Both the position numbers and the translations under genes were made by a program. A stretch of 36,702 nt of DNA from a virus. Its lineage: Duplodnaviria; Caudoviricetes. A model generated the notes under the pieces. That model saw nothing but the letters and a program-made list of their open reading frames with translations, had not been told where the DNA came from and did no database searches. The stretch covers positions 1 through 36,702 of IMG/VR virus record IMGVR_UViG_3300005573_000187. One strand, written 5' to 3'. Shown here piece by piece: positions 1 through 36,702 of this stretch (position 1 is its first letter; every line of letters begins with the position of its first letter).

Positions 1-85
1 TTTTTAAAGTAATGGAGGTTTCGCTTGTTCCGTAATATCCTGAAACCTCTACTTTACAAAAATTTTTGACTGCATCTGCTGACAT
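1..85 (-). CDS. 5' end of a putative tail fibre/structural protein, truncated by the window edge
   Basis: Not in the ORF track. ATG at 85 reads MSADAVKNFCKVEVSGYYGTSETSITLK..., directly after the adaptor gene and clearly similar to the N-terminus of the fibre at 35492 (MLDPVRNFAKVIVSQGYNYNDTQITLV). Confidence 0.75.
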   Translation of the reverse strand, partial: MSADAVKNFCKVEVSGYYGTSETSITLK

Positions 86-91
86 AGTTTA

Positions 92-766
92 TTAAAGCCA
101 GCCCTTGTTAAAGTAATCAATGCTTTTCATTTTAATTGGCTCTATTACCTCTACTTTTAAATCATCTAACATTTTCTTTAAATAAAACTGGTATAACTCA
201 AATTTCCTATTGGCGTCTGGATGTCCAATTTGTTCTAAATATTTAAAAGCGTTTCCATAAACAAAGACATCATAATAAGTATCTAAAATTGCGGGGATTT
301 CATCTGATGTTGAGGTAAATTCTGGTTGTTTGGCAATATACCAAATTCTTAATCCGTTTGTCTTATTTTCTTCCGCTCTGGGAAAAATAAAAACTTGTCC
401 GCCAAATAAATCCATTAATGGCTTTGTTTTTGGTTGGGTTTTTAATAATTCATACCATTCATAGGGCAAATTTCCCAAATCTGCTTGGCTTATTTTCTGC
501 CATTTACTATCATCAGTTGGGTCATCATAGTTAATTTCTAATCTTAAAATGGTTAATAAATCACTTGGTAAAGCATAGTTTGTTTGTCCTGCTACTAAAT
601 CGGTTTTCTTCACCGTGCCGAATAATTCTATTTCTTCATTTGCTAAACTTCTTTGAATATCTAAATAGGTCTCGTTAGTAAGAGATAAAAGGTCAACATC
701 GGGTAAGGTCGTTGAATTCGTATTGGTTATTTTTCTTGTTTTTTCAAATATGGTGGATAATTGCAT
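92..766 (-). CDS. Podovirus-type head-tail adaptor / tail tubular protein A-like
   Basis: 224 aa directly downstream of the MCP; 'DLVAGQTNYALPSDLLTILRLE' and 'IFP...IWY...P' pattern typical of adaptor proteins in this position. Confidence 0.6.
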   Translation of the reverse strand: MQLSTIFEKTRKITNTNSTTLPDVDLLSLTNETYLDIQRSLANEEIELFGTVKKTDLVAGQTNYALPSDLLTILRLEINYDDPTDDSKWQKISQADLGNLPYEWYELLKTQPKTKPLMDLFGGQVFIFPRAEENKTNGLRIWYIAKQPEFTSTSDEIPAILDTYYDVFVYGNAFKYLEQIGHPDANRKFELYQFYLKKMLDDLKVEVIEPIKMKSIDYFNKGWL

Positions 767-777
767 TTTGGTGAAGC

Positions 778-820
778 GGGGGCGGAAGCCACAAGGAGCC
801 TTCCCTTGCCCATAGCCCCC
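778..820 (-). terminator. GC-rich stem-loop after the MCP gene (terminator or mRNA-stabilising element)
   Basis: Outer GGGGGC/GCCCCC stem and inner CAAGG/CCTTG stem in AT-rich context, between MCP stop and adaptor start; no clear U-tract. Confidence 0.45.
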
Positions 821-849
821 AATCAGGGTTTTAGCAATCTAATCAATCA

Positions 850-1791
850 TTAGAGAGAAGTAGCGGCACTTTCAATTCTCATCAATCTTTCCTCTTGAGT
901 CCTTGCAACCCCGATATTGGTTTTCGCACCAACCCAACCCTTTTGTCCTAATTGGTTGCTAACAGAAATAGCGTTTTCTGGAGGATAAACATAAGTATTC
1001 ACTTTTCTTGCCAGCCAGTAAGAAATTCTGTAAGCGTCAGCGGCAATTAAGGTAGTCGGATAAACAGTTACATTTGAAGTAAAGGGCTGGACATTAGGAG
1101 ATTGAACAATTCTTGCTCCACCAATAGCGCCAATCTCTCCACGAAAGAGATTTTCAGGTTGTGCGTATTTGTGCGCCTCCCAATAACTTGCTCCAGTTCC
1201 AGCAGAAATCATTAAATCATAGGCAACTGCTGGGTGCATCACACAAGCATATCCACCACCAGGATATTCAGGAGCAGAATTATTTCTTAATTTCTGGACT
1301 GCCTTAAAAATCAAACTAATAGTAATCAAATCAGACGAAGTAATAGAACCCCTTGCAGTATAGCTTGCATTAGGATAAATCACATTGTTCCCAGCATTAA
1401 CGACGGTCTGAATTACCTCATCAATCTTCCTTGCCATTGCTTTACCAACTTCAGTAAGGGTTATATTTACTAATTGAAAAACAGCGGTCAAAGCGACCAA
1501 ATCTGTCATTTCAACACTAACCCCATATTGAGTTGGCGTTCTGTCAACTGCGCTAACAGAAACAGCAATGGCAGTAGGACCAGCTCCTTCTGACAATTGG
1601 GCTACATTGCTGGTAGCAATCTTGTCAAAAGTGAAAAATCTGGAGGTGTAATTGCCTTCTGGAACGGTTTCCACTGTTCCAAACTGTTCAAAATAGAGAT
1701 AGGGTTGCAAACTTTCAATAACTCTCGTGTCAAAATAAATTCCCAGCGCCTTCTGGCTTGTCGATAGATTGGATGTTGTAGTCGTTGCCAT
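850..1791 (-). CDS. Major capsid protein, HK97 fold, N4-gp56-like family
   Basis: 313 aa; 'LSEG', 'QYG..V..TD', 'GGYACVMHPAVAYDL', 'YAQPENLFRGEIG.IGG.RIV.S', 'NQLGQKGWVG.K' motifs; follows portal and scaffold. Confidence 0.9.
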   Translation of the reverse strand: MATTTTSNLSTSQKALGIYFDTRVIESLQPYLYFEQFGTVETVPEGNYTSRFFTFDKIATSNVAQLSEGAGPTAIAVSVSAVDRTPTQYGVSVEMTDLVALTAVFQLVNITLTEVGKAMARKIDEVIQTVVNAGNNVIYPNASYTARGSITSSDLITISLIFKAVQKLRNNSAPEYPGGGYACVMHPAVAYDLMISAGTGASYWEAHKYAQPENLFRGEIGAIGGARIVQSPNVQPFTSNVTVYPTTLIAADAYRISYWLARKVNTYVYPPENAISVSNQLGQKGWVGAKTNIGVARTQEERLMRIESAATSL

Positions 1792-1792
1792 T

Positions 1793-3318: not shown

Positions 3319-5358
3319 TTAAGGCATCATACTTTTTCCCATTCTTTCTGTTCCCTCTGGGGGAGAACCAAATATTTGTTTAATAATATCTTGCGATGTT
3401 TTAGTTGGCATTCTTGCTTCTAGCGTATCTGCGGGCGGTCTTTCTTCTTCCAACATTTCTGGCGGTATTTGTCCTTCTGTTGGCAACGCTTCTCTTTGTC
3501 TGACAATGTTTGATTGTCCCATTTTCGCTTCTTTAACTTCTTTTTGCTTTCTCAAAATGTTAGCCATATGAGCGGCAATATGAAGTTCTCTTGTTTTTGT
3601 AGACGCAATTCTCATATGAACAGCAATATGTTGAGCGTCATCATCTTCGCTATCAATATAAACAAGTTTGTTGTCTTTTAGAATTTCATTTTCTTTTTCC
3701 GCTTTAATTTCGTGCGGTGTTGGCGGTAAAATTGCCTCAATCTGGTCTGGTGTTAAATCGGTAAGATAAAGCATATATCTTACTCCTTCTCTAACATTTC
3801 CGCCAATTTGCGGCAGTATTGGCAAAATTTCTGTTAAATCCCTTCTCTTTAAAATTCTTTCTGGCTCCGCTTCCAAAGAAGAAACAACTTTAATTTTTGG
3901 GTCAACCTCTGGGATAAAATCGGATTTTTTAACTTCAATAAATTCTTTTGCCCCCTGATATCCTACCAATTCGGCAATTTTGGTATCATCCTCGCTCATA
4001 AATCTTTGGTGTCTTTTTAACCAGCGATACCAGAAATCTTTTTCGCCATCAATAATATTTCTCATTAAAGAACTCATTAAAACATCTTCTTTTGCTTTTC
4101 TTAAAGCATATTCTGTTGCTGTCTTTTTTGTTGTCTTTGCCAATGATGTTGCCGCAGACAATCTTGAATAACTCGCCATTCCCAATGCTTCTGCCTGGAT
4201 TTGGTTCATAAAAACAAGGGTATCATTAGAAACAACATTTGTTTTAGGAAAAGGAACTATTTGATTTGCGGGATATCCTTTTACTGGAATTGATTTTCCA
4301 ATCTCTTTTGTTGAAAGATGACGGGGATTGATAATTGATTCAATATTATAAAGAAATGTTGGTGTAGCGTCTAATTTTATTCCTTGAAAGAGATAATTTT
4401 TTAAAACAACATCCGCCCTATGCAAATCTTCAAGTTTTTCTGGCAATCCTATACCCCAAAAGGATAGATTGGTTTTAATGTAATAAAAAGGAACGAAAGG
4501 AATTTTACTTTCTCTATCCCCCGCGTCTCTGTAATCTACTTTTTGATAACCCAACAAAGTGCTTACTGAATTATCAGTCCAAATAACATATAAATCTCCA
4601 CCAGCATACATATACCATTCCAAAATCTCAATATAAGCAGAAGGATGTATTGGCTCTTGATAATTTAAATTTCCAATGAGAATTCTTTTTGCTTCTCTTA
4701 CTAATTGCTGTTGTTCGTATGATTCTGAACCTGTTCTTCTGTTTATTATTTCTTTAACCTTACTTTCATCAAGGCGGGGGTCTTGTTTTAATTCGTATGC
4801 TGTTTTATAAATGAACCTTCCAGCATATCTTGCTTCCTCAATACAAGTTGCCTGCTTATCGATAAAAAAAAGCATTGGATTAACTGGTTTTACGATTAAA
4901 AGTTTTCTTTTTTTATCATAAAGAGAAACATCTAAAAGTCCTATACCAAAGAAAATAATATCCCATAAAAGTCCTCTCATTATTTTTCCCATTCTCATTT
5001 CTTCAAAATCAAAATTGGCTACTGCGTTAGTATATTTCATTTTCTTTACATCTGCGGGGGTTCTTGCTTCAAACTCTGTTCTTCTGTTATCGCTATCAAT
5101 CGCAGAAAAAGTTTCCTGAAACTGATTAAAAACCAAATTAGAACCCAAATAAATATCGTCAGAAATAGATTTTTTATACTGATTAAGATAAAGTTTAACT
5201 AAATTTACCCAAAGCAGTTTTTTTTGCGTTGTATCATAAGATGAATCAAAATGTTGAGTTTTTACAACTTGTAAAATTTCTTCTGGTTTCCAATCCGAAA
5301 GAGACAAAAAAGAAAGTTCTAATTGCCTATTAAGAGAGATTGTGTTCTGATTGTTCAT
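3319..5358 (-). CDS. Portal protein (P22-like podovirus portal)
   Basis: 679 aa after terL; 'PFVPFY.....SFWGIGLPEKLEDL', 'KTATE', C-terminal 'DDDAQHIAVH' motif. Confidence 0.85.
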   Translation of the reverse strand: MNNQNTISLNRQLELSFLSLSDWKPEEILQVVKTQHFDSSYDTTQKKLLWVNLVKLYLNQYKKSISDDIYLGSNLVFNQFQETFSAIDSDNRRTEFEARTPADVKKMKYTNAVANFDFEEMRMGKIMRGLLWDIIFFGIGLLDVSLYDKKRKLLIVKPVNPMLFFIDKQATCIEEARYAGRFIYKTAYELKQDPRLDESKVKEIINRRTGSESYEQQQLVREAKRILIGNLNYQEPIHPSAYIEILEWYMYAGGDLYVIWTDNSVSTLLGYQKVDYRDAGDRESKIPFVPFYYIKTNLSFWGIGLPEKLEDLHRADVVLKNYLFQGIKLDATPTFLYNIESIINPRHLSTKEIGKSIPVKGYPANQIVPFPKTNVVSNDTLVFMNQIQAEALGMASYSRLSAATSLAKTTKKTATEYALRKAKEDVLMSSLMRNIIDGEKDFWYRWLKRHQRFMSEDDTKIAELVGYQGAKEFIEVKKSDFIPEVDPKIKVVSSLEAEPERILKRRDLTEILPILPQIGGNVREGVRYMLYLTDLTPDQIEAILPPTPHEIKAEKENEILKDNKLVYIDSEDDDAQHIAVHMRIASTKTRELHIAAHMANILRKQKEVKEAKMGQSNIVRQREALPTEGQIPPEMLEEERPPADTLEARMPTKTSQDIIKQIFGSPPEGTERMGKSMMP

Positions 5359-5741: not shown

Positions 5742-6413
5742 TCAAATTATAAAACCGTCTCTAATTGTACTCAACCAATACTTATCTTCCTCACTTAAAT
5801 CAATATTATTGATGTTTTTAAAAAAAGTCAAGACCTTAAATTTCCACTCAAGAAAAGGTAAAAAAACATTTAATAAAATTCTGATTGTTTTCCATTTTTT
5901 CTTCATCTGCGGGAATCTTTCCCTTGTTTCTAATTCTTTAAAAACTGCCAATAAATCTTTTTTATCGTGTATAACCTTATTATAAAGCACCCGCTGAAAT
6001 CTTAATCTATAAGCGCTGTCCAACTCTAAAATCATAAACATTGAATAATAAAAATCCCTAATATCATCAGAAAATTTCAGGCCAAAAGTTATAATAAAAG
6101 CGTCAATCAAACTTCTAACAAAGGAACAAAACTGAGGATAAGAAAATTCAAAGTATTTTAAACCCTTTCTGTATATTTCAAGATAAAAACTTTTAAAGAA
6201 TGGTAAAAGATAAGGATGGGAAATATAGAATAAAAAAATGTATTTTTGAATTGCGCAAAGAAATAATAACTGCGGATTTAAAAAGCCAGGAAATGGTTTT
6301 TCTTCGCCTTTAATATAAGTAAAAATGCCCTTTTCTCTTACTTCAATTTTTTCTACTTTAACATCTTCTCCAACTGGAAAATTAGGAAAAATGTTTTTTA
6401 TTATGTCTCCCAT
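5742..6413 (-). CDS. Hypothetical protein
   Basis: 223-aa ORF overlapping the terL stop; no recognisable family motif. Confidence 0.6.
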   Translation of the reverse strand: MGDIIKNIFPNFPVGEDVKVEKIEVREKGIFTYIKGEEKPFPGFLNPQLLFLCAIQKYIFLFYISHPYLLPFFKSFYLEIYRKGLKYFEFSYPQFCSFVRSLIDAFIITFGLKFSDDIRDFYYSMFMILELDSAYRLRFQRVLYNKVIHDKKDLLAVFKELETRERFPQMKKKWKTIRILLNVFLPFLEWKFKVLTFFKNINNIDLSEEDKYWLSTIRDGFII

Positions 6414-7732
6414 AATGCTTCATCATAAAATTTCAATTGATTTAAATCTTCAATAAATGTTAAAACAAAAGCATCCCAAACATTGGGAGAAGCAATGCCT
6501 TTTTTTAATAAACTTTCTTTTGATTCTATTTTAATTTTTCTATCTGATTGAATTTTGTATCTTATTGTTAAAGCCTCTTTCCACGCTTCGTCTTCAATTA
6601 ACTTTCCGCCCCTTAAAATCCATTCTCTGGCTTTCCAGTATAGTTCTGCTTTTTTGTTAAAAAATCTTTCTTGGTCATCTGCTTTTGAACCAAAAATAAC
6701 TCCGTGTGTTTTGTTAAAAAGCCCTGTTTCATTTAATCTATCATAAATTCCTTTTCCCACTCCTGTAATGTCAATAGCAATTATTCTAAAATTATAAATT
6801 GAATAAAGCTCTGTTATCTTCGGCAAAATTACCATTGTATCTGATAATCTCTGATTAAAAAGCACTTTTGCTGTTAAATGGTCTCTAACCACAATTGCTG
6901 TTGCGTCTCCGCCCGCTCCCACATCAACACCCAAAATACAAGGTTGAGATAAAGGATAATCAGATTGAACAATGGCTTCGTCTAATTGTTTTGAAGAAAT
7001 TAAAGCCAAATATCCTTTGTTGTCCATTTCTCCTTCAAAAGAATACCAATCGCCTTCTAATAATGCTTTTTTTAGTTTTTCGTCCATTCCTTTTGATAAT
7101 TCCTCATAATAGTTTGCTGGTAAATATGGATTATCTCCTATTTCTGCTTTCAAAAACCCCGCCTCTTTACATCTTTGGTCTTTTGATGTTTTTTCAACAA
7201 AAAATTCTCTCACCCAATTTGAAAATTCTCCAACTGGATTTGATACTGCTAAAAATTTAGGATTTTCTATGCCAGTCCATCTATTTCTCTGTAAAAGAAT
7301 ATCAAATGTTTCTTTTGGGATTTGTGTTATTTCATCTACTCCAACAATAGCCCATTCAGAAGAAAAATATTTTTCTGGTTCATCTAAATTCCTAAACATC
7401 AAAATTCCTCCTCCATAATCTTCTGATAAATGAAATTCGCTTTTTTGTTCATAATAAGTTCCAAGCCACAAAGGAAATTCTATTTTTATTCTTTTTAAAT
7501 GTCTATCATTTAATTCAGGATAAGTTCTACAAAATAATCCTCCTTGAACGTTTTTATATCCTTTTGCCCCCCAATAAAGAAGCCAATAAAGAATAATCCA
7601 TCTTAAAGCCCTACTTTTGCCTGTTCCGAGTGCTCCACTCCATAATGTATACCTATAAGTTTTTGTAAATTCTAAAAAGAGTTTCTGTTTAGGAGTAAAA
7701 TTTGCCAGTTTGAAAAAGTTTATTTTTTCCAT
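6401..7732 (-). CDS. terL: Terminase large subunit
   Basis: Walker A SGALGTGKS, Walker B IVGVDE, coupling motif SNP; RNase H-like nuclease LGVDVGAGGD, IDITGVG, SPNVWDA. Confidence 0.95.
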   Translation of the reverse strand: MEKINFFKLANFTPKQKLFLEFTKTYRYTLWSGALGTGKSRALRWIILYWLLYWGAKGYKNVQGGLFCRTYPELNDRHLKRIKIEFPLWLGTYYEQKSEFHLSEDYGGGILMFRNLDEPEKYFSSEWAIVGVDEITQIPKETFDILLQRNRWTGIENPKFLAVSNPVGEFSNWVREFFVEKTSKDQRCKEAGFLKAEIGDNPYLPANYYEELSKGMDEKLKKALLEGDWYSFEGEMDNKGYLALISSKQLDEAIVQSDYPLSQPCILGVDVGAGGDATAIVVRDHLTAKVLFNQRLSDTMVILPKITELYSIYNFRIIAIDITGVGKGIYDRLNETGLFNKTHGVIFGSKADDQERFFNKKAELYWKAREWILRGGKLIEDEAWKEALTIRYKIQSDRKIKIESKESLLKKGIASPNVWDAFVLTFIEDLNQLKFYDEALWET

Positions 7733-7862
7733 TAAATATTTTTATTTTCTTTCCACAATTCTGGATTTGATGTTATTATTCCTCCTCCACTTTCTATAAT
7801 TTTTTTAAAAAGTTCAAATTTTGCTTGTTTTTCTGGATTTTCAAATTCTTTTTTTACTTTTT

Positions 7863-8186
7863 TTATTTTTCTTCTTCTTCATCATCTGTTAAAACCAAAA
7901 TCTTTTTTTCTTCTGTTTCTATTGTTTGTTTTGCTTGTCCGTATAATCTATCAAGAATATCTTTGTAAAAAGAATAATTTCCTTTTAATCCTTCACGAAT
8001 TCCTCTTTTCACAAGTTCAATCTGGACCGCGTCTGGTTTTTTGCCTAATTTTAACGCTTCGGCGACCTGCTTTGTTGCCTCCTCGAATATCGTCTTAAAG
8101 TTTCTCGCTCCTTTCGGTCTTCCTTTTGGATTTCCTGACTGACCTGGTTTAAATCTATATTCTGCTGGAGGTAATTTTCTTGGCAT
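7863..8186 (-). CDS. terS: Terminase small subunit (putative)
   Basis: 'RFKPGQSGNPKGRPKG' and 'ILDRLYGQAKQ' motifs, upstream of terL. ATG 8186 (MPRK) preferred over the TTG at 8246. Confidence 0.8.
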   Translation of the reverse strand: MPRKLPPAEYRFKPGQSGNPKGRPKGARNFKTIFEEATKQVAEALKLGKKPDAVQIELVKRGIREGLKGNYSFYKDILDRLYGQAKQTIETEEKKILVLTDDEEEEK

Positions 8187-8211
8187 ATTTTGTCTGTTTT
8201 TTACCCTGTTT

Positions 8212-8313
8212 CTATTTTTCGTTTGTTTGTCTTGGGTTTCCTTCAAAGAATTTTAAATCTTTTAATTTCCTTTTTTCTGTTTTCCAAATTATTTTATTTT
8301 CTTTTAAAATCAT
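8212..8313 (-). pseudogene. 33-aa remnant resembling a ParB/Srx N-terminus
   Basis: Manual translation MILKENKIIWKTEKRKLKDLKFFEGNPRQTNEK*; 'L.DLK....NPR' matches the start of ParB-N domains that often precede terS. Confidence 0.5.
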
Positions 8314-8332
8314 TTTTAAAATTATCTAATAT

Positions 8333-8458
8333 TATTTTATTAAATCAATAAAGTATTTGTCAATAGTATTTAATATATCTGCGGGCGGAAAAGGTTGATT
8401 TTATTGTATTTTTTGCCTTTTTTATGGGTCTTAACAGAATTTTTATATTTGTTAAAAT
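8333..8458. repeat. Left copy of a ~125-bp inverted repeat containing a divergent promoter pair
   Basis: Aligns with the reverse complement of 15216-15335. Outward (minus) TTGACA 8363-8358 N18 TAAAAT 8339-8334; inward (plus) TTAACA 8431 N16 TAAAAT 8453. Confidence 0.9.
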
Positions 8459-8488
8459 GAAACTGATAAGGAAAAAGGGAAAAGGGTC

Positions 8489-8577
8489 TTGACAAAAATT
8501 TTTCAGTGGGTAAAATAAGAGTAGATAAAAACAAAGACAAAAAAAGAACTTGACAAAAAATTTATCCAGAGTAAAAT
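8489..8577 (+). promoter_or_regulatory. Two tandem sigma70-type promoters
   Basis: TTGACA(8489)-N16-TAAAAT(8511) and TTGACA(8550)-N16-TAAAAT(8572), upstream of the 8666 operon. Confidence 0.75.
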
Positions 8578-8665
8578 TAAAAATGATAACAAAAGAAAGA
8601 ATTAAAAGAAAATTAAAAAGTCGTAAAAAATAAAAAAGGTCGTAAAAATAATTAAATAAAAAAGT

Positions 8666-8908: not shown

Positions 8909-8938
8909 AAAAGGTCGCAAAAAAATAAGTAAAACACT

Positions 8939-9388: not shown

Positions 9389-9421
9389 TTAAAAAAGGTC
9401 GCAAAAAAATAAGTAAAAACT

Positions 9422-27176: not shown

Positions 27177-27179
27177 GTC

Positions 27180-27619: not shown

Positions 27620-28144
27620 ATGAACAGAGAGACAATTCACCAAAATTATTCTTATGTAACGAAACAAGCAAATGTTGCTAATGCCGATAGTCCAATAGCA
27701 ATTCTTACTATTCCTGCTGGAAGAATTTATAGATTAGCTCACGAAACTCCTTTGGTATTGAAACTTTATACTTCAGGCGGAACTGAAATTTCAAGAGCTT
27801 CAAAAGTTTATCTTGCTTGGCAAGCGCCAGTTGGTGAAACAAAATATCAAGTTGGGAGAACAATGACTTATGGAGTATTCGCAGATCTTTCAGTTGACCA
27901 GCAATATGACATCAATACGCAAGCAAAGAGAATGATTGAAATTACCGATGAAGAGATTGTTAGATATCAGAATAGACAAGAAAATTTAATAGATGGATTG
28001 GGTGCAGATTATAAAATTTTACTAATGCTGAATTCTCCTGATGTGGTAAGTTGGACACAATCTGGCACTCAATTTAACTTTGATGTGTTTGTTTTGACTG
28101 CTCAAGAATTTGAGGGAGAAAAGAAGGGTAGAAAGGTCGCTTAA
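27620..28144 (+). CDS. Small single-jelly-roll major capsid protein (P23-77 VP16-like)
   Basis: 174 aa, beta-rich. 'TIPAG.....PLVLKLYTSGGTEISRASKVYLA' and 'Y..F.DLS..QQ.D' match my recollection of VP16 (PVILKLYDTGGNQLP..TDVFLA; Y..YYDLTEAQLRD); paired with a larger beta protein. Confidence 0.82.
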   Translation: MNRETIHQNYSYVTKQANVANADSPIAILTIPAGRIYRLAHETPLVLKLYTSGGTEISRASKVYLAWQAPVGETKYQVGRTMTYGVFADLSVDQQYDINTQAKRMIEITDEEIVRYQNRQENLIDGLGADYKILLMLNSPDVVSWTQSGTQFNFDVFVLTAQEFEGEKKGRKVA

Positions 28145-28185: not shown

Positions 28186-28935
28186 ATGGAAAAACAAATT
28201 ATTAGACAATCAGGAATTCTTACAAATACGGATTTTACTATTACTCCGAATCAAGTTGGATATGAAAGCGAGATAGCCACTTATAAAGTTCCACAAAACA
28301 GAGTTGTAGAACTTCCTGATAAGCTTATTAGATTAAAATTGATGACAAAGGAAACTTTCTCCTTTACCTCTCCCACTAATGCAACAGAGAAAAGTTGCGT
28401 TTTGACTTATCCAATTGTTCAAGATCCATTGGTATCTTTAGTTCGCAATGCTGTAATTGTTGTTCAAAGAAGTGCTGGAGGAAGTCCTACAAATGTTGAA
28501 TGGACAAATTTCACTGTTACCTTGCCAAACACTGTAACGATTAAGGGATTGACTCAAAGCACAGATTATGTCTATGATATCTTTTATCTCTTTTCAGATG
28601 GAAGCGTAAATATAACGATTGTTTCTGATGATGCAACCGTTAGAACAAAAATTTTAGAAAGTTCAATCGTAGGAATTAATCAATTGAATCAATTAGATTC
28701 AAGGAAAGGATTAAGATATGGAAAGATAAATATGATTCTTCCTGATAGGTGGCAAATTCAAGTTAGGGTTATAACTAGTGCTTCAATTGTTTTATATGAT
28801 CCAGTTGCAGATAGCGGGGCAAAAAGCAGGTTTGCAAGACATTCTTATATTGAATTGCCAGTAGATATTTCCAGTATTTTTCAATGGGGAGAAGAAGTTA
28901 GAGATATTGCTAAAGAAAGAGCTATGATTTACTAA
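28186..28935 (+). CDS. Large single-jelly-roll major capsid protein (P23-77 VP17-like)
   Basis: 249 aa, beta-rich. 'NTDF', 'IATYKVP', 'IFYLFSDG', 'NQ', 'HSYIELPV' correspond in order to recalled VP17 motifs (NEDF, LAQMKTP, IYYVHGDG, DQ, HYIQI). Confidence 0.75.
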   Translation: MEKQIIRQSGILTNTDFTITPNQVGYESEIATYKVPQNRVVELPDKLIRLKLMTKETFSFTSPTNATEKSCVLTYPIVQDPLVSLVRNAVIVVQRSAGGSPTNVEWTNFTVTLPNTVTIKGLTQSTDYVYDIFYLFSDGSVNITIVSDDATVRTKILESSIVGINQLNQLDSRKGLRYGKINMILPDRWQIQVRVITSASIVLYDPVADSGAKSRFARHSYIELPVDISSIFQWGEEVRDIAKERAMIY

Positions 28936-29013: not shown

Positions 29014-29059
29014 AAGGCAAGTTCAACCACTTCCTCCTTGTAAGTGAGTAACTTGCCTT
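29014..29059 (+). terminator. Stem-loop after the capsid genes
   Basis: AAGGCAAGTT / AACTTGCCTT arms followed by ATTTT, about 10 nt before the next ATG. Confidence 0.55.
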
Positions 29060-29069
29060 ATTTTAAAAT

Positions 29070-29726
29070 ATGACAGAACAACAATGGGTAGGATGGGTAA
29101 GAAAATGGTTTTCTCTTACACCTCAACAATTAATAGCATTAACAGCAAGGGCAGAAGCCCAAGAAGATTGGGTTCGTATTGGAAATAGTGCCTTACAAGC
29201 AGTAATCAATGTTATTCATAATAGAAGAATTCATCCACCACAATACTTTTACAACAATCCACAAATTTTAGGAGCAAGTAGAATTTTACAAGAAACGAGT
29301 TCGCCTTATCACGCAATAATTTTAGGATATCAACAATTTAGTTGTTATTTGTCAGAATATTCAGAAATTACAGAACATTATACAGATCCAGATACTTTCA
29401 ATTATTATTTGAAAAATAATAAATGCTTGCAAGCGTGTATGAGATTAGTAGATGCATTAGTCAATGGAACTTTAATAGATATTACAGGAGGAGCAGATCA
29501 TTATGTAAATCCAAGAATAACTCAACCCTCAATCGTAGAAAATTTTAATAGAACAATGGTTTATAGAACAGATATAGGACAGCATAGATTTTGGTCAGCA
29601 CCGCCTCACTATTGGGAAAATCCACAAAGGTTTAAACCTCCTGAATATGTAGCAGGAAAACCACAAACAGAATTATTAAGAGTTATAGTTCCAGCTACTG
29701 GAATTATAATGGGAGGAGGGGTATAA
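29070..29726 (+). CDS. Cell wall hydrolase (SleB / Hydrolase_2 family)
   Basis: 'ALTARAEA', 'AVINVIHNR', 'QFSC', 'DITGGADHY.NP', 'IGQHRF'. Confidence 0.88.
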   Translation: MTEQQWVGWVRKWFSLTPQQLIALTARAEAQEDWVRIGNSALQAVINVIHNRRIHPPQYFYNNPQILGASRILQETSSPYHAIILGYQQFSCYLSEYSEITEHYTDPDTFNYYLKNNKCLQACMRLVDALVNGTLIDITGGADHYVNPRITQPSIVENFNRTMVYRTDIGQHRFWSAPPHYWENPQRFKPPEYVAGKPQTELLRVIVPATGIIMGGGV

Positions 29727-29799
29727 TAAATATGACAAAAATTTTTAAGACAAAGGTTGTAAAAATATTTTAAAGGTCAAAATAAAACAAAATAAAATA

Positions 29800-30804
29800 A
29801 TGGAAATAAGTTCATATCCCGCACAAGTTACCGCTAGTTCTTATGGAGCAAGGTTTAGAACAGGACCTGCAACTACCTATTCAATAAAGTATTCTTTTGG
29901 AGCTGGGTATAAATTTACGGTTGTAGGTTATGTCAATGGAGAAATAGTAGATGGTGAAAATAGATGGTGGAAAGTTTCAGATGGAACTTATGTTTGGGTA
30001 GGGGCAACGATAGAAAAACCAGCAACGATTTCAATTCCATCTCCGACTCCTATATCAACTCCCACTCCCACTCCCACTCCCACTCCTACTCCTACACCTA
30101 CTCCTACACCTACTCCTACACTTACTCCTACACCCACTCCCATCCCTCAAGAATATTGGTTATATGGAGGAGTGATTGATAACAGCACAAGAAATCCTCT
30201 TTCAGAAGTTAAGATAAATGCTTTTGGAATTGCCTCTACTACAACAAATTCAAATGGATATTTTGAGATTAAATTTACTCAAGAATATTCTGGCCAGGTA
30301 ACAGCAAGTAAAGATGGATATAAAACAGCAACCCAATATGTTCAACTTGGTTATCCATCAAAAGCAATACTTTTTTATCTAGATCCTATTGTGACTTCAG
30401 AATATCCAAAGCAAGTAACTCTTGGTTGGAATGCCAATGTTAGAACAGCACCAAATAGACAAGCAATAATTGTTAAGGTTTTGCCAGCAGGTTCTACATT
30501 TACTGCAGTAGCAATGATTCAAGGAGAAAATGTTGATGGCAATGCAAATTGGTATAAAACATCAGAAGGTTATTACATTTGGCAAGGAGCAGAAACAGAA
30601 AAAGAAGCAGAAATAGAAAAAGGGAATAAAGATAAAATTCCATCGCTTGAAAATTATGTTTGTCCTTGGTGTGATCAAAAATTTGGGACGAAAGAACAAC
30701 TTACTGAACATATGGAAAAATGTCCTAAAAAACCAATAACGAATAGTTGGATCATTCCAGCACTTATTATTGGTGGTTTGATTTTCTTAATACGAAAAAA
30801 ATAA
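29800..30804 (+). CDS. Membrane-anchored protein with two SH3b-like domains, PT linker, beta-sandwich and Zn finger
   Basis: Two repeats 'R..P......G..FT....GE.VDG...W.K...G.Y.W.G'; (PT)n linker; 'VTASKDGY' carboxypeptidase-regulatory-like domain; CPWC..H...C; C-terminal TM. Confidence 0.75.
   Translation: MEISSYPAQVTASSYGARFRTGPATTYSIKYSFGAGYKFTVVGYVNGEIVDGENRWWKVSDGTYVWVGATIEKPATISIPSPTPISTPTPTPTPTPTPTPTPTPTPTLTPTPTPIPQEYWLYGGVIDNSTRNPLSEVKINAFGIASTTTNSNGYFEIKFTQEYSGQVTASKDGYKTATQYVQLGYPSKAILFYLDPIVTSEYPKQVTLGWNANVRTAPNRQAIIVKVLPAGSTFTAVAMIQGENVDGNANWYKTSEGYYIWQGAETEKEAEIEKGNKDKIPSLENYVCPWCDQKFGTKEQLTEHMEKCPKKPITNSWIIPALIIGGLIFLIRKK
30040..30147 (+). repeat. Pro-Thr coding microsatellite (6-nt units)
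   Basis: CCCACT / CCTACA / CCTACT runs encoding (PT)n. Confidence 0.9.
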
Positions 30805-30805
30805 T

Positions 30806-31573
30806 ATGAGAGATTTTGTTAAACAGATTCAATCTGAAAGTTTTAAACTTGGGGGAAAAATTTTACAGTTTTTTTCGGGTTGCATTAATAGGGCAGAAAA
30901 TTTTATGAAAACTCAATGGAATGTTGATAAAGATGGAGAAAAAAATGGAGAATTGGATAACGCAACATCAGTTGAAATATTTTACATAATTTATAAGTTT
31001 CCTGATATTCTTGAAAAGCGAAATAGATATAGATTAAAAGAAGACGAAATAATTTCTGAAATCAATTATCTTTTAAATCACGAGGGGATAAAAGATTGGA
31101 AAATAAAAAAAGTTAGTGATTGGGTTTTTAATATAAGCACAATCCATTTTGGAGCAGTAAGACCAAAACCAACAATCACATTAGGAAAATCATCTTTGTG
31201 GGAAACAACCCAGATTGTAGGACAGTTATTGCTTTTAAAAGGATTTTTCATTACGGCAGTTGTAATTATTAGAAATGGAGTTTGGTTATATTACGCTTGG
31301 CACGATAATCCAACATCAACTGAAATTTTTGAAATTATGAATTTAATGAATTTTTATGAGAGAGAAAATGTAATTGATGATGTAGTAGAAAAAACGATTA
31401 TGAATATAGCAAAAGATGAGCAAAAAGGAGGATTTGTTGAAAAAATAGAAACTTGGGCAAAGATTGTTTTGGTAATTTTAGTTGTTTTGACAATAACTTA
31501 TATTTTGAGTGAATGGAGAAAAACTGGAGAATTTTTTAAAAAAGGTCTTGATATTTTAGACAAAAAAGATTAA
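30806..31573 (+). CDS. Hypothetical membrane-anchored protein
   Basis: 255 aa with a C-terminal TM helix. Confidence 0.65.
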   Translation: MRDFVKQIQSESFKLGGKILQFFSGCINRAENFMKTQWNVDKDGEKNGELDNATSVEIFYIIYKFPDILEKRNRYRLKEDEIISEINYLLNHEGIKDWKIKKVSDWVFNISTIHFGAVRPKPTITLGKSSLWETTQIVGQLLLLKGFFITAVVIIRNGVWLYYAWHDNPTSTEIFEIMNLMNFYERENVIDDVVEKTIMNIAKDEQKGGFVEKIETWAKIVLVILVVLTITYILSEWRKTGEFFKKGLDILDKKD

Positions 31574-31581: not shown

Positions 31582-31941
31582 ATGGAAAAAGAACAAGAAG
31601 AAATTAAAACTTTAAAAGAAGAACTGAACGAGATTAAATCTCTTTTAAAAGATATTCTTGAAGAACTAAAAACAAGCGATGAAAATGAGGATTTTTTTAA
31701 ATCCTATCGTCTTTCAGATGTGGATGAGAGCGGAACTATTCGTTATTATGGCTATTTGAAAAAAAATGGAGATTGGATAATAGAAGCTTATGATACTTCA
31801 ACAGGGGAGAGAAGATTTGCAATTTCTGATAAATTAATAAAGAGGACAAAAGAAGAAAAAGGATATATAAATGCTTGGGAAAATAGACAAAAATTAACAT
31901 ATTTGTTATTTTATGAAATTTTTCCAGAAATACAACCTTAA
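31582..31941 (+). CDS. Hypothetical structural protein
   Basis: N-terminal coiled coil, then 'YYGY....G.WII' and 'AWENRQ.LTY'. Confidence 0.6.
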   Translation: MEKEQEEIKTLKEELNEIKSLLKDILEELKTSDENEDFFKSYRLSDVDESGTIRYYGYLKKNGDWIIEAYDTSTGERRFAISDKLIKRTKEEKGYINAWENRQKLTYLLFYEIFPEIQP

Positions 31942-31970
31942 TTTAAAGGTCTTATTAAAAAAATAAAATT

Positions 31971-32123
31971 ATGGAAAAAGAGGAAAAAGATATAAAAGTT
32001 TCTATCTACGATCCTTCAATTAATGCTTTTAGGGAAGTTCCTTTGGAATTGGCAGAAAAGTTTGTAGAAGAGGCAAAAAAAGTAGAAAAGGTTATAGAAA
32101 AAATAAAAAAAGAAGAAAAATAA
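31971..32123 (+). CDS. Small protein (50 aa)
   Basis: Not in the ORF track. MEKEEKDIKVSIYDPSINAFREVPLELAEKFVEEAKKVEKVIEKIKKEEK, preceded by an AAAGGTCTT leader variant. Confidence 0.6.
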   Translation: MEKEEKDIKVSIYDPSINAFREVPLELAEKFVEEAKKVEKVIEKIKKEEK

Positions 32124-32124
32124 T

Positions 32125-32661
32125 ATGGTTCAAGAAATTGCCAAAGGAAAAGATAATGTAGGAGTTGCTCAATTAAATAAATTAATAGAAAAGTTTACTG
32201 AAAAAGCAGTTTGGACTATTAGGAAATTCAAAAATAGAGAAGATTTTGAAAATAATAAACCTTATGAAATAAGTAAAATTGAAGGAAACATTCTTTTAAA
32301 CTCTGGAATAAATGAACTCTTTACAATCATTTGCTCTTCTGGTGGAACAAAATGGGATGCTACAAATGCTTATTTAGGAGTGGGAGATAGTAATACTACG
32401 GAAAATGCTACTCAAACTGATTTGTTAGGAACTAACAAAACTTACAAAGGAATGGTTTCTGGTTATCCTACTTATGGAACAAATCAAAAAGCAACTTGGA
32501 AAGCTCAATTTACAGAGAACGAGGCAAATTATGCTTGGCAAGAATTTGTTTTAAGAAATGGGGCTAGTTCTGGAACTTGCTTAAACAGAAAAGTTTATGA
32601 TCAAGGAACAAAAACTTCAGGACAAATTTGGGAATTAACTTTAGAGATTTCTTTAAGCTAA
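32125..32661 (+). CDS. Fibre/spike-associated beta protein, paralog 1
   Basis: 'N.LLN.G', 'YLGVGDS......TQTDL', 'F...EAN..W.E', 'K.S...W.LT.EI'; similar to 34899..35432. Confidence 0.6.
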   Translation: MVQEIAKGKDNVGVAQLNKLIEKFTEKAVWTIRKFKNREDFENNKPYEISKIEGNILLNSGINELFTIICSSGGTKWDATNAYLGVGDSNTTENATQTDLLGTNKTYKGMVSGYPTYGTNQKATWKAQFTENEANYAWQEFVLRNGASSGTCLNRKVYDQGTKTSGQIWELTLEISLS

Positions 32662-32708
32662 AAGCACAAATGAAATAGTTTGAAAATGTGCTTTTAGTAT
32701 AAATTTTG
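32659..32708 (+). repeat. 50-bp direct repeat, copy 1
   Basis: 45/50 identical to 35430-35479; this copy forms a hairpin (TAAAAGCACA/TGTGCTTTTA). Confidence 0.85.
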
Positions 32709-32712
32709 AATT

Positions 32713-34548
32713 ATGGCTTGGCTCCAAAATTGGACATACCGCAAAAAAATAACAATTTCAGGTTCAAGCGGTGCTGGAACGAATTACCAAGTTCTTTTAA
32801 AAGTTGGAGAAAGTTCAGGTGCTACTGGATACGATTTTCATTTAGAAGGACATTCAGCAAATTTTCCCTCTGGCAAAAATCAGGGTGGTGATATAAGATT
32901 TACCGCCGATGATGGAACCACTTTATTAGATTTTTGGGTAGAAAATGTAAGTGGAACTTCTCCAAATAGAGTTGCTCATATCTGGGTTAAGGTTTCAGCG
33001 GATTTAGGAACTGACAAGTATATTTATTGCTATTATGGAAATCCAAACGCTACAAATGCGAGCAATGGAGATAATACATTTTTGTTCTTTGATGATTTTG
33101 ATGATAACTCAATAGATACAAATAAATGGTATGAGGAAAATTATGGCGGGGCTGATTGTGTTGAACAAAATCAAAGAATGGAACTTACAGGAACTTCAGC
33201 AAATTCGTGGGCCCAACTTGTTTCGCAAAATACAATAAACATACAAAATACCGAACTAAAAGTAAGATTGAGAAATGCGGTGGCTGATAGAGTTGATTTA
33301 TATCTATCTTTAACCAAACCAGCATCTGGTGGTGGTCATATATATGATCAGCCAAATTATTATCGCTCATTTTTAGAGAAATATGAGGGACTTTATTTTA
33401 GGGTGGCTCGCAAAGTAAATGGTAGCGGAACTCTTCTTTATCAAGGAAGTTATCTTTCAAACGATGAAGATATAAAAGTTAGAGTCGCTGGAAATACAAT
33501 ATATTTTTTTGAACAAGACACTCAAAGATATTCAGAAACTTACCAACTTTCAAGTTATAATTGCTATATTGTATTTAATGGTGGTTTTGTTTCAGGCACT
33601 ACTGGAACTGATTGGGTAGATGAATTGCGTGTCCGCAAATATGTTTCCCCCGAACCAGCATTCAGTTCGGCAGATGCGGAGGAAAAATTAATAATACTTT
33701 CAGATTCTGGTTCAGGAATAGATATAATTGGAACAAAAGAAAATTTTTCATTAGCAGATTATGGAAATGGGCTAGATGTAATTACATTAAAACAATTGAC
33801 AGCAATTACAATTTCGGATTTAGGATTAGGAACAGAAACTGGATTAGAAGTAAAACCAACAAAATTAGTTCAAGATTTAGGGACTGGCCAAGATTTAGTT
33901 TTTCCAATTCAAGCAAAATTAACTCTTTCTGATTTAGGAAGCGGAGTAGATACAATTGGAATTTTATTAAAGTTTTTAATCCAAGATTCTGGAATAGGAA
34001 GGGAAACTTTATTAATTGGAATATCAAATTTAGTTCAGGATTCAGGAATTGGGATTGAAAAATTAGGAATTTGGGAAAGTATAAAAGTTTCAGATTCAGG
34101 AATAGGAAGTGATTTAATTTGCTCTATAATTTTAAATTTATTAGAAGAAATTGGAATAGGAAAAGAGTTTATTTACAAAAAAATTACTTGGAAACCTTCT
34201 ATTATAGATGATGAAGATTTCTCAAAACCAATAATTGTTCAAGAATACAGAACAGTTGTTCCTTTGCCTCTTTGGATAGATAAGCTAGTAGAGGCAGGAG
34301 AAACATCAGATGAGATAGATGTTTCAGAACTTGGTTCTTTTGGAGCTTTAATTGAAGTTAAAAGTCAAACAAGTGTAGAAATTCAAATTGAAACTGCTTG
34401 GGGATGGGAAACAATTGATACAATAGATTTTGATGATCCAAATGGTGGAAGCCAATTTTATCCATTTTGGTCAATTCAATTTGAAAAAGTTAGATTATTA
34501 TTTACAAAGGCTACAACTGTCTCCTTACAATTATATTGTAGAACTTAA
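32713..34548 (+). CDS. DUF2341-like / lectin-like adhesin with a repeat stalk
   Basis: 'WL.NW.YRKKITI', 'DIRFT..DG.TLL.FWVE', 'WVKV', 'YYGNP', 'FFDDF'; about nine DxGxGxD/E repeats in the C-terminal half. Confidence 0.75.
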   Translation: MAWLQNWTYRKKITISGSSGAGTNYQVLLKVGESSGATGYDFHLEGHSANFPSGKNQGGDIRFTADDGTTLLDFWVENVSGTSPNRVAHIWVKVSADLGTDKYIYCYYGNPNATNASNGDNTFLFFDDFDDNSIDTNKWYEENYGGADCVEQNQRMELTGTSANSWAQLVSQNTINIQNTELKVRLRNAVADRVDLYLSLTKPASGGGHIYDQPNYYRSFLEKYEGLYFRVARKVNGSGTLLYQGSYLSNDEDIKVRVAGNTIYFFEQDTQRYSETYQLSSYNCYIVFNGGFVSGTTGTDWVDELRVRKYVSPEPAFSSADAEEKLIILSDSGSGIDIIGTKENFSLADYGNGLDVITLKQLTAITISDLGLGTETGLEVKPTKLVQDLGTGQDLVFPIQAKLTLSDLGSGVDTIGILLKFLIQDSGIGRETLLIGISNLVQDSGIGIEKLGIWESIKVSDSGIGSDLICSIILNLLEEIGIGKEFIYKKITWKPSIIDDEDFSKPIIVQEYRTVVPLPLWIDKLVEAGETSDEIDVSELGSFGALIEVKSQTSVEIQIETAWGWETIDTIDFDDPNGGSQFYPFWSIQFEKVRLLFTKATTVSLQLYCRT

Positions 34549-34669
34549 ACTATGGCAACTCAAATTTTTATTTTTGATTCTGGACAAGAAAAAAAATTAG
34601 TTATAAAATTATCTTGGTATGTCATTAAGTATAAAAGGTCGTTAATTTGATAGATTTTATGTTAAATAA

Positions 34670-34894
34670 ATGAACCTAAACGAAAACAAGAATCTTCCGC
34701 CAAGAATTGAACAGAAAAAAAAAGAATTGGGCATCCCAGAAAATGCTGAAGTTCAGATTATTATTAGTGAGAACGAAGAACCACAATACAGATTTTACAT
34801 TTGGGGAGAGAGAGAAACTATTGGTGCCGATAGAAAGCCTGTAAAAGAAAAGGTTCCAATTGTATTAAAAACAATTTCAGCATCAGAATTATAA
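34670..34894 (+). CDS. Small hypothetical protein
   Basis: 74 aa; AGGTCG leader at 34636. Confidence 0.6.
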   Translation: MNLNENKNLPPRIEQKKKELGIPENAEVQIIISENEEPQYRFYIWGERETIGADRKPVKEKVPIVLKTISASEL

Positions 34895-34898
34895 AACT

Positions 34899-35432
34899 AT
34901 GAACGAAGTAAAAACAATAAAATTTGGCACAGACGGAAAAGCATCAATGGCATTTAGAATTTGGAGGGCAGATAAGCAAAGATGGGAAACTCCAGGATTG
35001 GTATGGAGCATAAAGCAAACCTTAAGAGAATTGGTGATTCAGTTTTTGAATCTCTTTAGGAAAGAGAAGAGATATGCCACAGTTTTAACTCAAGTAGGAG
35101 AAGAATGGATTGTAGATAAACTTGATGAAGTAGTTCAAACCACTGGAGATTATATTGGTTGGGGAAGTGGAAGCGGAACTGCTTCAAAATCAGATACCGC
35201 TTTGTTTACTGAAGAATCAGAATCAAGAGTTGTAGCAACAAGAACTCAACCTGCAGCCGATAAAATTCAGTGGGTAGGACAGTTAACTGCTTCTAGTTCT
35301 AAAACCATTACCAATGCTGGAAACTTTACTGCTTCTACTGGTGGAACTTTAATTGTTCACGGAGATTTTACTGGGATTAGTTTGAATGCTGGAGATAAGA
35401 TAGAATTTACAATTCAGCTTGAAATAACATAA
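34899..35432 (+). CDS. Fibre/spike-associated beta protein, paralog 2
   Basis: 'VLT..G', 'YIGWGSGSGTASKSDTALFTE', 'ITNAG.F....GG', 'L..GD.IEFT'. Confidence 0.65.
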   Translation: MNEVKTIKFGTDGKASMAFRIWRADKQRWETPGLVWSIKQTLRELVIQFLNLFRKEKRYATVLTQVGEEWIVDKLDEVVQTTGDYIGWGSGSGTASKSDTALFTEESESRVVATRTQPAADKIQWVGQLTASSSKTITNAGNFTASTGGTLIVHGDFTGISLNAGDKIEFTIQLEIT

Positions 35433-35479
35433 AAGCACAAATGAAATAGTTTAAAAATGTAATTTTGGCATAAATTTTG
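35430..35479 (+). repeat. 50-bp direct repeat, copy 2
   Basis: See 32659-32708. Confidence 0.85.
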
Positions 35480-35491
35480 GATTTTAAAAAT

Positions 35492-36702
35492 ATGCTTGAC
35501 CCAGTCAGAAATTTTGCCAAAGTAATCGTATCACAAGGTTATAATTATAATGATACCCAGATAACTTTAGTTACTGGTGATGGAGCAAAACTTCCAAATC
35601 CTGCAACGGAAGGTGCTTTTAATTTGGTTTGGTATAACGATACAGATTACAAAGACCCAGCAGATGACCCTTATGTAGAAATAGTCAGAGTTACGGCAAA
35701 ATCTGGCGATACTCTAACAATTCAAAGAGGGCAAGAAGAAACTTCAGCCCAAAACCACAATTTATCAGGTAAAACCTACAAGATGATTTTAGGTATGACA
35801 AAAAAAATGAAGGACGATTTGGAAAGAATTCACGGTGTAATCTATCCATCTACTGACTCAACTACTGCCATTCAAATAAACAAAGCTGATGGAACAACTA
35901 ATATAGTAGATATTGATACCATAAATTCAAGAGTTGGCATTTTAACAACAAGTCCAGGAGCGCCTTTTCAACTTGGTGCTACTAATATCACGGGAAATGT
36001 TAGGTGGGTAAATACTGGCGTAAATCCATATTTTGGAATTTATAATTCTGCTACTGGTTTATATTACGGGATTTCGGCCCAATTGCCTTCTCCTTCTGGT
36101 GTTTCTACTTTGGGAGGATATTTCAAGGGACTTGGTATAGGTGGGATAGTGGCTGGAACGGGCGACCCGATTTTTGGCGTCTTAAATTCCCAACAATCAG
36201 GACACGGGATAGGAGATATAGCTTTTACAATCTATGCGAACAATAAAGTAGTTACATATAATAACACCCTTGATGCTGGAGATGGAGGGGCAAATTTTGC
36301 TGGCAATGTTGGTATCGGAACAACAAGTCCTGCTTATACTTTAGATGTTGCTGGTAATTTAAGAGCAAGTCTTACTATTACTGCTGGAATAAATATTGAA
36401 AGTTTATCTGGTGATAAAACCTTGACCGTTGGAACTGATAAGATGTATCAGTATCTAAATCCGAACGGGGCAAACAGAATTATTACTTTATCCACAACAA
36501 ATGCTCGTGCTGGAGATAAATTTATCATCAGAAACAACGGTGCCTATAATACCAGTTATCGTCTTCAAATCAATCAAGGAGCAACTCCCTTAGATTATAT
36601 CTATAGCCAATCAATTAGAGAATATATCTTTGATGGCACAAACTGGGTTTCAGGTGATGCTGGAACAGGAATAAGTAGTGATCAGAATGTGGCAATAGGA
36701 TA
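35492..36702 (+). CDS. Tail-fibre-like protein, 3' truncated by the window edge
   Basis: Not in the ORF track (no stop before the edge). MLDPVRNFAKV...EIVRVTAKSGDTLTIQRGQE.T.A..H, then fibre-shaft motifs RVGILTTSP and GNVGIGTTSPAYTLDVAG. Confidence 0.8.
   Translation, partial: MLDPVRNFAKVIVSQGYNYNDTQITLVTGDGAKLPNPATEGAFNLVWYNDTDYKDPADDPYVEIVRVTAKSGDTLTIQRGQEETSAQNHNLSGKTYKMILGMTKKMKDDLERIHGVIYPSTDSTTAIQINKADGTTNIVDIDTINSRVGILTTSPGAPFQLGATNITGNVRWVNTGVNPYFGIYNSATGLYYGISAQLPSPSGVSTLGGYFKGLGIGGIVAGTGDPIFGVLNSQQSGHGIGDIAFTIYANNKVVTYNNTLDAGDGGANFAGNVGIGTTSPAYTLDVAGNLRASLTITAGINIESLSGDKTLTVGTDKMYQYLNPNGANRIITLSTTNARAGDKFIIRNNGAYNTSYRLQINQGATPLDYIYSQSIREYIFDGTNWVSGDAGTGISSDQNVAIG

Follow-up and report, generated by a model that had tools for sequence, protein, structure and literature searches.

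Can one DNA molecule carry the virion modules of two viral realms, and does it then belong to one virus or to two? The question is raised by IMGVR_UViG_3300005573_000187 (36,702 bp), an entire virus record without end repeats, both ends of which open inside fibre genes; the window discussed here is the whole of this record. By gene content its left 15.2 kb is a podovirus with an N4-gp56-type capsid, portal, TerL, adaptor and early genes, while its right 21.4 kb is a virus of the realm Singelaviria, in which VP16- and VP17-like jelly rolls are predicted and which also encodes an SH1-like ATPase, membrane proteins and a protein-primed-type family B DNA polymerase (PolB). Both virion modules on this single contig are real and intact and come from two realms, and they are those of two distinct viruses, not of one design. 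The join between them is, taken over the three readings in which it exists, quite probably real, and most likely facultative. The best explanation, to which we give a probability of roughly 0.45, is a real but facultative fusion formed by recombination between two viruses of one bacterial host.

A model that had read the letters alone (the original prediction) had placed an HK97-type podovirus head module in the left arm, and profile searches bear this out for TerL, portal, capsid and adaptor, together with a candidate small terminase subunit. These genes all lie on the minus strand. The major capsid protein (MCP, 850-1791) belongs to the N4-gp56 family, scoring 150 bits against TIGR04387 (cut-off 60), also exceeding the cut-off of PF25209 and matching phrog_1357 (E 5e-50); an HK97 fold is assigned to it by family, no solved structure having matched it by sequence. 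On one side lies an SU10-type head-tail adaptor (92-766; PF24175, E 1e-14) and on the other a likely scaffold protein (1842-2387), without family match, which adjoins the MCP and keeps its position in relatives. Then come the portal (3319-5358; PF23899, E 8e-19; phrog_1216), TerL (6401-7732; phrog_2, E 2e-36) and a likely terminase small subunit (7863-8186), a DUF5681 protein whose gene sits before terL. The contig ends within a fibre gene of which the first 28 codons remain (1-85), a paralogue of the gene at 35492-36702 that starts like the post-adaptor fibre gene of the free podovirus G001; an adaptor followed by such a fibre gene was found in 21 of the 31 close podovirus loci. The window thus shows the adaptor and 28 fibre codons of the tail apparatus, the remainder lying beyond the contig end, and tail genes are present in relatives. 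The genes from 8.7 to 15.2 kb are podoviral too, as they recur before terS in L002, L006, L031, L082 and L084 (in the last tied to a different head module). They form early block A (8666-12194, plus strand), with a duplicated YdcK-repeat gene and an SLT gene and syntenic in the same five loci, and early block B (12225-15207, minus strand), which encodes a helix-turn-helix (HTH) protein, proteins of 133 and 106 aa, an amidase, a holin-like protein, an exonuclease and an HNH protein, in the same order as in the free podovirus G004 except for the lysin.

The right arm had been credited with a stand-alone FtsK/HerA ATPase, small transmembrane proteins and two adjacent capsid-like genes, and Foldseek, sequence matches and hydropathy agree on all three; all genes named here are on the plus strand. 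The AlphaFold model of the 27620-28144 product (predicted local distance difference test, pLDDT, 69) matches, at E<=0.001 and among the matches listed, none but the small capsid proteins of P23-77, HCIV-1, HHIV-2 and SH1 (best Foldseek E 6e-6), and in VIA it reaches Z 12.6 with a root-mean-square deviation of 3.6 over 142 aligned residues, against Z 6.1 for the best unrelated structure. The model of the 28186-28935 product (pLDDT 88) has seven Foldseek matches at E<=0.001 (best 3e-12) and all seven, among the matches listed, are large capsid proteins of P23-77, HCIV-1, HHIV-2 or SH1. Both models therefore match capsid jelly rolls of Halopanivirales, the outcome that the original prediction had staked itself on, and two vertical single-jelly-roll MCPs are predicted, a small VP16-like and a large VP17-like one. 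For the ATPase (25247-25921), whose Walker motifs are invariant in seven relatives, 13 of the 13 phage records matched are Halopanivirales (SH1, HHIV-2, PH1, HCIV-1, HJIV1 and NVIV1). A hydrophobic segment was found by hydropathy in eight proteins of the arm, which is only suggestive of an internal membrane. What the earlier list of features had overlooked is the PolB gene (19893-21386, 497 aa; PF03175, E 2e-28), whose family profile matches the phi29 polymerase (E 4e-18) and which is present in the four of four tailless loci long enough to show it (window, L048, L053 and L064).

That the two arms are two viruses is evident from their relatives. IMG/VR holds 31 close (58-99% identity) and 14 distant relatives of the MCP, and the whole podovirus records (G001-G007) lack the core genes of the jelly-roll arm in seven of seven cases. 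One of them, G004 (29,473 bp), displays the entire cycle: head, tail, replication initiator, promoter, and then genes equivalent to those at 15.2-14.3 kb of the window, so that the replication initiator occupies the place where the tailless arm starts in the window. Conversely, the capsid pair recurs in 22 metagenome loci and in one contig of a metagenome-assembled genome (MAG), and these 23 tailless relatives (123 kb) are without head or early genes, except for an amidase in three of them. None reaches the place of the junction, L053 showing 470 bp before the HTH gene and the contig of L048 (28,380 bp) having 6.4 kb upstream unseen. A VP17 profile found 41 cluster representatives at E<=0.001, and 10 at E<=1e-30. 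Scans of IMG/VR with VP17, VP16, PolB, the ATPase and the 133-aa early protein found no relative. The two groups have nonetheless been shown to share lysis and fibre genes closely: a lysin is identical at 310 of 365 residues (85%) between tailless L048 and podovirus G001, the podovirus amidase of the window is 77% identical to one within the jelly-roll block of L049, and in L048 and L055 podophage-type fibre genes of the same types come after the capsid block. Measured against relatives, the ratio of nonsynonymous to synonymous substitution rates (dN/dS) lies at 0.06-0.26 in the head genes and at 0.06-0.34 in VP16, VP17 and the ATPase, low values equally expected of fused and of free viruses.

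Where, then, do the two viruses meet? The original prediction had seen no obvious junction, which no longer holds, since synteny and the contig layout of two sequencing runs put one near 15,225-15,254. The element is present in three public hot-spring DNA runs from three studies, X1, X2 and X3, in which 0.97, 0.92 (both 2017) and 0.27 (2025) of the sampled words were found. The first right-arm contig begins at 15,225 in both X1 and X2. All eight listed contigs of X2 match the window letter for letter, and those flanking the junction overlap by exactly 30 nt (15225-15254), as would a node with one way in and two ways out; the only entry to the right arm would therefore be the podovirus early block. 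Joints with sides of 20-25 nt were left out of this reading of the layout. Depth in X2 is 17-21x over 7,500-15,254 and then 9-11x (means of 18.7x on the left and 10.0x on the right, a ratio of 1.87), which best fits a population in which about half of the early-block molecules continue into the tailless arm and half elsewhere. GC bias was dismissed as a cause of this step, a GC of 0.33 being found at 9.9x and of 0.31 at 18.5x (0.23-0.36 along the sequence). Even depth across the arms, proposed earlier as a check, is thus seen in X1 (29.2x and 27.9x, a ratio of 1.05) but not in X2. X3 contains a relative, about 92% alike, that diverges from the window at 15,252 into 1,252 other bases; in the same run a 98% variant bridges the methylase to the HTH gene, and variants have early block (72-82x) and PolB (76-84x) at equal depth. 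Variant alleles of the small Zn-finger gene downstream of the methylase occur in all three runs.

The same data bear on the possibility of a mis-assembly, in which the assembler crossed between a free podovirus and a free jelly-roll virus that infect the same host and have the early block, or just its promoter, in common. This seems unlikely to us, yet it is the most probable of the alternatives. Depth in X1 doubles over the early block at 13.8-15.2 kb to 46-50x, approximately the sum of the arms, and a second allele is present there, which a collapsed shared segment would explain just as well; the ratio of the arms shifts between runs (1.05 and 1.87); another record, G003, joins two related podoviruses inside terL; and both contig ends fall in fibre genes common to many relatives. 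An 18,107-bp contig with an identical methylase does not figure in the clusters of the two genes that border the junction on the left, and seems to stop or diverge left of the methylase. The search for other contigs with both modules, which the original prediction had suggested, came back empty, head and jelly-roll genes occurring together in 0 of 84 loci (some of these loci overlap within one record, and the right part of the window is itself counted). These points weigh against a fusion, as do several others: depth in X3 is uneven, dropping to 38x at the Zn-finger gene and to 48-66x at 9.0-9.3 kb; the record itself may stem from X1 or X2; contig depth covers 7.5-21.4 kb only, that is, neither capsid gene; the layout results come from 24 of more than 2,000 pieces, among which no contig spans the whole stretch; and no recombinase was found. 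Nor was a second contig bridging the junction found, a weak negative since identical proteins are represented by their longest contig only. However, were the early block a collapsed repeat of two free viruses, its depth in X2 should be about 28x, and it is disfavoured there because the observed depth is 16.8-21.5x; if two free viruses had only the promoter in common, the shared stretch would have to measure exactly 30 nt; and the equal depth of the arms in X1 and in the X3 variants would both have to be coincidence.

A further argument comes from the promoter in which the junction lies. The arms had been said to be linked by a duplicated divergent promoter, by a common leader and by paralogous fibre genes. 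The cassette is real: PC1 (8325-8458) and PC2 (15216-15343) are 82% identical over 136 bp, in inverted orientation, and PC2, which holds the junction (the X1 and X2 contigs break at 15225-15254), is homologous to PC1 on both sides of it and runs across it as a single PC1 paralogue, which speaks against a mis-assembly. In G004 a promoter matching PC2 comes after the replication-initiator operon. Among the loci examined, only the window and L001, which is a further assembly of this left arm, have the core of PC1/PC2, and a scan with 17 nt of the cassette returned L001 and two chance matches; of the links proposed, the cassette is the sole one confined to this lineage. The leader AAAGGTCG is enriched (18 copies in the window against 0.6 in shuffles), but as a tie between the arms it fails, being found in free podoviruses (9 copies in G001 and 11 in G004, against 2 and 2 when reversed; 5 in G003 and 2 in G005, no excess) and in tailless loci (6 in L048, 5 in L053 and 7 in L055). 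Because it is common in G001, G004 and the tailless loci, it marks a shared host. Fibre paralogues are likewise of no value as a tie, since they are general in both groups and occur in relatives showing only one module. Two other candidates were discarded: GGTCTTGAC as a promoter specific to tailless viruses, a near-identical one being present in G004, and a possible likeness of the junction to a Xer/dif site, the pattern being explained by a sigma-70 promoter.

Three signs speak for a join that is made and unmade: the ratio of 1.87:1 in X2, the exit at 15,252 in X3 and the seven whole podoviruses without jelly-roll genes. Size is a separate consideration. With the tail operon of G004 (about 10 kb) added to the window, the fused genome would come to at least about 47 kb, while free podoviruses whose capsid protein is 76% and 70% identical measure 29.3-29.5 kb and Halopanivirales genomes are given as 16.3-31.3 kb in the available text of PMC5332951; set against these sizes, the fused DNA probably exceeds either shell, making its packaging as a whole unlikely. 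A scenario for the facultative fusion can be outlined as follows. In co-infected cells the tailless genome would become attached at the promoter before podovirus early block B, where free G004 has its replication-initiator operon. Too long for either shell, the fused DNA would persist inside cells, and to spread it would need to split again by recombination or have only part of its length packaged. In the tailless virus, a VP16/VP17 shell would be built around a membrane and filled by the FtsK/HerA ATPase; the viral DNA would be copied by PolB with the HTH protein encoded before it, and podophage-type fibres would serve attachment. Of the original interpretation, then, the identity of the modules and the idea of a cointegrate or fusion of two viruses survive, whereas one virus packaging its whole genome in two particle types is unlikely, given the seven of seven relatives without jelly-roll genes, the 1.9-fold step in X2 and the length of at least about 47 kb.

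A related possibility is that the fusion is permanent, a single inherited replicon encoding and using both virion systems, the second exit from the junction leading to a variant tailless arm. We regard such a stable dual-capsid lineage as improbable, and equally doubtful is its fuller form, a heritable replicon of about 50 kb with a Duplodnaviria head and a Singelaviria membrane shell, paired divergent promoter cassettes and a PolB trimmed after the fusion. Equal depth on both sides in X1 and in the X3 variants would be natural for it, the Zn-finger alleles in all three runs could be further tailless variants reachable by the second exit, PC1/PC2 is lineage-specific, and no tailless relative is seen far enough upstream to exclude a podovirus arm. 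The replication genes also offer some support. A replication initiator (HTH_36/DnaD-like) is present in three of the four free podovirus records tested and absent from the window, although it may lie in the unassembled part. The PolB of the window has kept its polymerase motifs, but its exonuclease motifs are degraded and it is about 47 C-terminal residues short of the proteins of L048 and L053 (547 and 566 aa); exonuclease motifs and C-terminus are retained in L048, L053 and L064. Since two variants at 90.5% share the 497-aa form, the shortening of PolB characterizes the lineage and is no error. Low dN/dS (0.06-0.34 for head and capsid genes) has also been counted in favour of a permanent union, yet it is just as compatible with free viruses, and against this union stand the excess of length over both groups and the seven whole podovirus relatives without a tailless arm. 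For an obligate dual virus equal copy would be expected in every sample; the ratios of 1.05:1 in X1 and 1.87:1 in X2 depart from this, although a second variant arm could explain X2. As to a satellite and its helper, each partner encodes its own capsid and packaging motor, and the shortened PolB is a hint only.

Finally, the two viruses might be tandem proviruses in a host chromosome, a host recombinase having opened the podovirus at the promoter that precedes early block B. IMG/VR lists G005 as a provirus, one copy of each virus per cell would give the equal depth of X1 and X3, inoviruses have been reported to be co-located with tailed prophages (PMC6813254, in the text available) and integrase-less phages are described as using host recombinases at dif sites (PMC11630473, likewise). 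However, the absence of an integrase noted by the original prediction is confirmed for tyrosine integrases, PF00589 being found in none of five records and in 14 of 14 controls; a Pfam-type profile search found no serine recombinase among the 54 open reading frames (ORFs), there are no tRNA genes on the contig, and host genes are lacking both from the contig and from the fetched ends of G005. Moreover, a protein-primed polymerase suggests a linear, non-integrated genome. We therefore consider tandem proviruses very unlikely, and retain the facultative fusion.

The remaining genes of the tailless arm deserve a brief description. It opens with an N6/N4 DNA methyltransferase gene (15351-18728, plus strand), identified by profiles, whose depth in X2 tracks the right arm. 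An antisense HNH gene (15536-16108, minus strand), which has a promoter of its own (16144, minus strand), divides it into two ORFs, and there is an intein in the second part. The halves of the methyltransferase may assemble as proteins, given that no Rfam intron was matched (Rfam gave no match in the window or in three loci). The small Zn-finger gene (18725-18970, plus strand), whose homologue occupies the corresponding position in L053 (27% identity, pairwise E 1e-6), is the first gene shown to belong to the tailless virus; L053 assigns to that virus also the long hairpin before the HTH gene (18986-19066, z -6.9), a hairpin of different sequence lying at the same place there (405-465, z -5.1). 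One arm of the hairpin in the window is complementary to the start of the HTH gene, and another strong hairpin (29015-29060) precedes the cell-wall hydrolase gene; translation control, terminators or an origin are possible roles. The basic HTH protein (19085-19903, plus strand), encoded just before PolB wherever seen (L048 and L053), is a candidate terminal protein or origin-binding protein. The ESM Atlas gave HTH leads only for it, all under 0.9 and none usable, and nothing usable for the 711-aa modular protein that follows PolB. The latter and six small or membrane proteins (21417-25250, plus strand) were placed by hydropathy and by synteny with L048 and L053. The modular protein itself (window 21417-23552; L048 2124-4013; L053 3136-5577) consists of domains separated by NPxNP linkers and varying among relatives, and has an HExxH motif in its first domain; one 264-bp piece is shared, at 95% identity, by the window and L053, which is distant elsewhere.

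Between ATPase and capsid genes lie small membrane proteins, a holin-like protein, a basic protein and a conserved 96-aa membrane protein (25965-27591, plus strand; synteny and hydropathy). The slot after the ATPase is occupied in tailless relatives by interchangeable lysins (L048 6984-8084, L049 3162-3647, L055 1578-2069, L064 4866-6979) and is empty in the window and in L053; because it is empty, the tailless arm of the window may rely on the amidase of the podovirus arm. Downstream of the capsid genes, a cell-wall hydrolase, an SH3 membrane protein and a two-TM (transmembrane) protein (29070-31573, plus strand; PF07486 and PF08239; syntenic in L048, L053, L055 and L068) likely serve entry. 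They are followed by podophage-type fibre or receptor-binding genes (31582-36702, plus strand), namely phrog_23653, DUF2341, Gp80-like and fibre genes, in the last of which the contig ends.

Several side observations concern the podoviruses. At 9383-10636 the YdcK beta-solenoid gene carries a perfect tandem duplication of 627 bp, which may be real or an assembly echo; L001 ends at it, and X3 covers it at low depth. In L003, L006, L007, L025 and L082, terL contains insertions of about 1 kb close to codons 40 and 123, one in L082 being in frame, whereas terL of the window has none. G003 (L024, L025 and L075), a 40.9-kb record rated 100% complete, contains two podovirus head modules joined at an insertion in terL, one part being 100% identical to L011 and the other 98.7% to L006.

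As for the host, peptidoglycan hydrolases and sigma-70 promoters point to a bacterium. The tailless relative L071 was found on a 5.3-kb contig assigned to a Ca. Lithacetigena glycinireducens MAG; this species was not accepted as host, the leader not being enriched in it (39 copies against 123 reversed) and no podovirus MCP being found. A host among the Patescibacteria is a guess, and a literature search for the motif gave nothing relevant.

How does the tailless half compare with known systems? Closest in setting are the Thermus viruses P23-77 and IN93 (Matsushitaviridae, Halopanivirales, Singelaviria), also bacterial and from hot springs, with adjacent VP16- and VP17-like genes, an FtsK/HerA ATPase and small membrane proteins. 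Their genomes are described as circular, 17.0 and 19.6 kb (PMC5332951, available text), whereas the arm of the window is at least 21.4 kb (at least 28.4 kb in a relative), has about 28% GC, a capsid identity of 14-19%, a PolB and podophage-type fibres; the circular genome of 16-20 kb that characterizes Matsushitaviridae and Simuloviridae is thus at odds with an arm of at least 21.4 kb and a relative whose contig measures 28,380 bp. SH1, HHIV-2, PH1 and HCIV-1 (Sphaerolipoviridae) and HJIV1 and NVIV1 (Simuloviridae) share the two vertical single-jelly-roll capsid proteins and provide the best sequence matches of the ATPase (21-28%), and Sphaerolipoviridae genomes (28-31 kb) are similar in size to this tailless group. 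However, these viruses have haloarchaeal hosts, whereas the present group has peptidoglycan hydrolases; and while the GC content of Sphaerolipoviridae is 67-68% and a canonical DNA polymerase is missing from their genomes (PMC12643093), the window has a PolB and a GC of 0.23-0.36. A tailless icosahedral virion with a protein-primed PolB is also reported for Chaacviridae, which are viruses of ANME-1, and for tectiviruses such as Bacillus phages Sato and Sole, yet chaacviruses have double-jelly-roll capsids and genomes of 10-11 kb; the proposed Huracanviridae have single jelly rolls, with no PolB mentioned (all in the available part of PMC9894754). The PolB of the window is 25% identical to that of Sato and Sole. 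On the podovirus side, N4-gp56-capsid podoviruses with SU10-type portal and adaptor have the same order of TerL, portal, capsid and adaptor, the nearest named one being Bacillus phage Pascal (26.5%); the podovirus of the window differs in belonging to an uncultured group of phages of about 29 kb and in having the tailless arm at the place of the G004 replication initiator. The co-located inovirus and tailed prophages (PMC6813254, as far as its available text goes) likewise put viruses of two realms on one DNA, but they sit in chromosomes, whereas the window shows neither integrase nor host flank and has a duplicated promoter cassette common to both arms. In the literature searched, mostly open-access and without supplements, we found no report of both virion modules in one genome, nor of a single-jelly-roll virus with a protein-primed PolB; for the PolB, genome maps of the Huracanviridae, Halicoviridae and Nanicoviridae could be relevant.

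With a protein-primed-type PolB gene of its own, the tailless half looks like a family not yet described, and the firm novelty, whatever the nature of the join, is a PolB- and fibre-bearing bacterial group within Singelaviria, which has been created as a realm (PMC12714852, available text). Together with its 23 relatives, the right arm marks out a lineage of bacterial single-jelly-roll viruses that have a protein-primed-type polymerase and podophage-type fibres. Since Sphaerolipoviridae are thought to replicate by protein priming, yet encode no polymerase (PMC12643093), a group with its own PolB bears directly on how Singelaviria replicate. The presence of the element in three runs makes the join testable from existing raw data. 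Realms are defined by the virion module, and a natural molecule with two of them would, if true, show how genes and entire modules move between realms; even a passing fusion, if true, would supply the missing step by which the two groups came to have lysis and fibre genes in common, at up to 85% identity.

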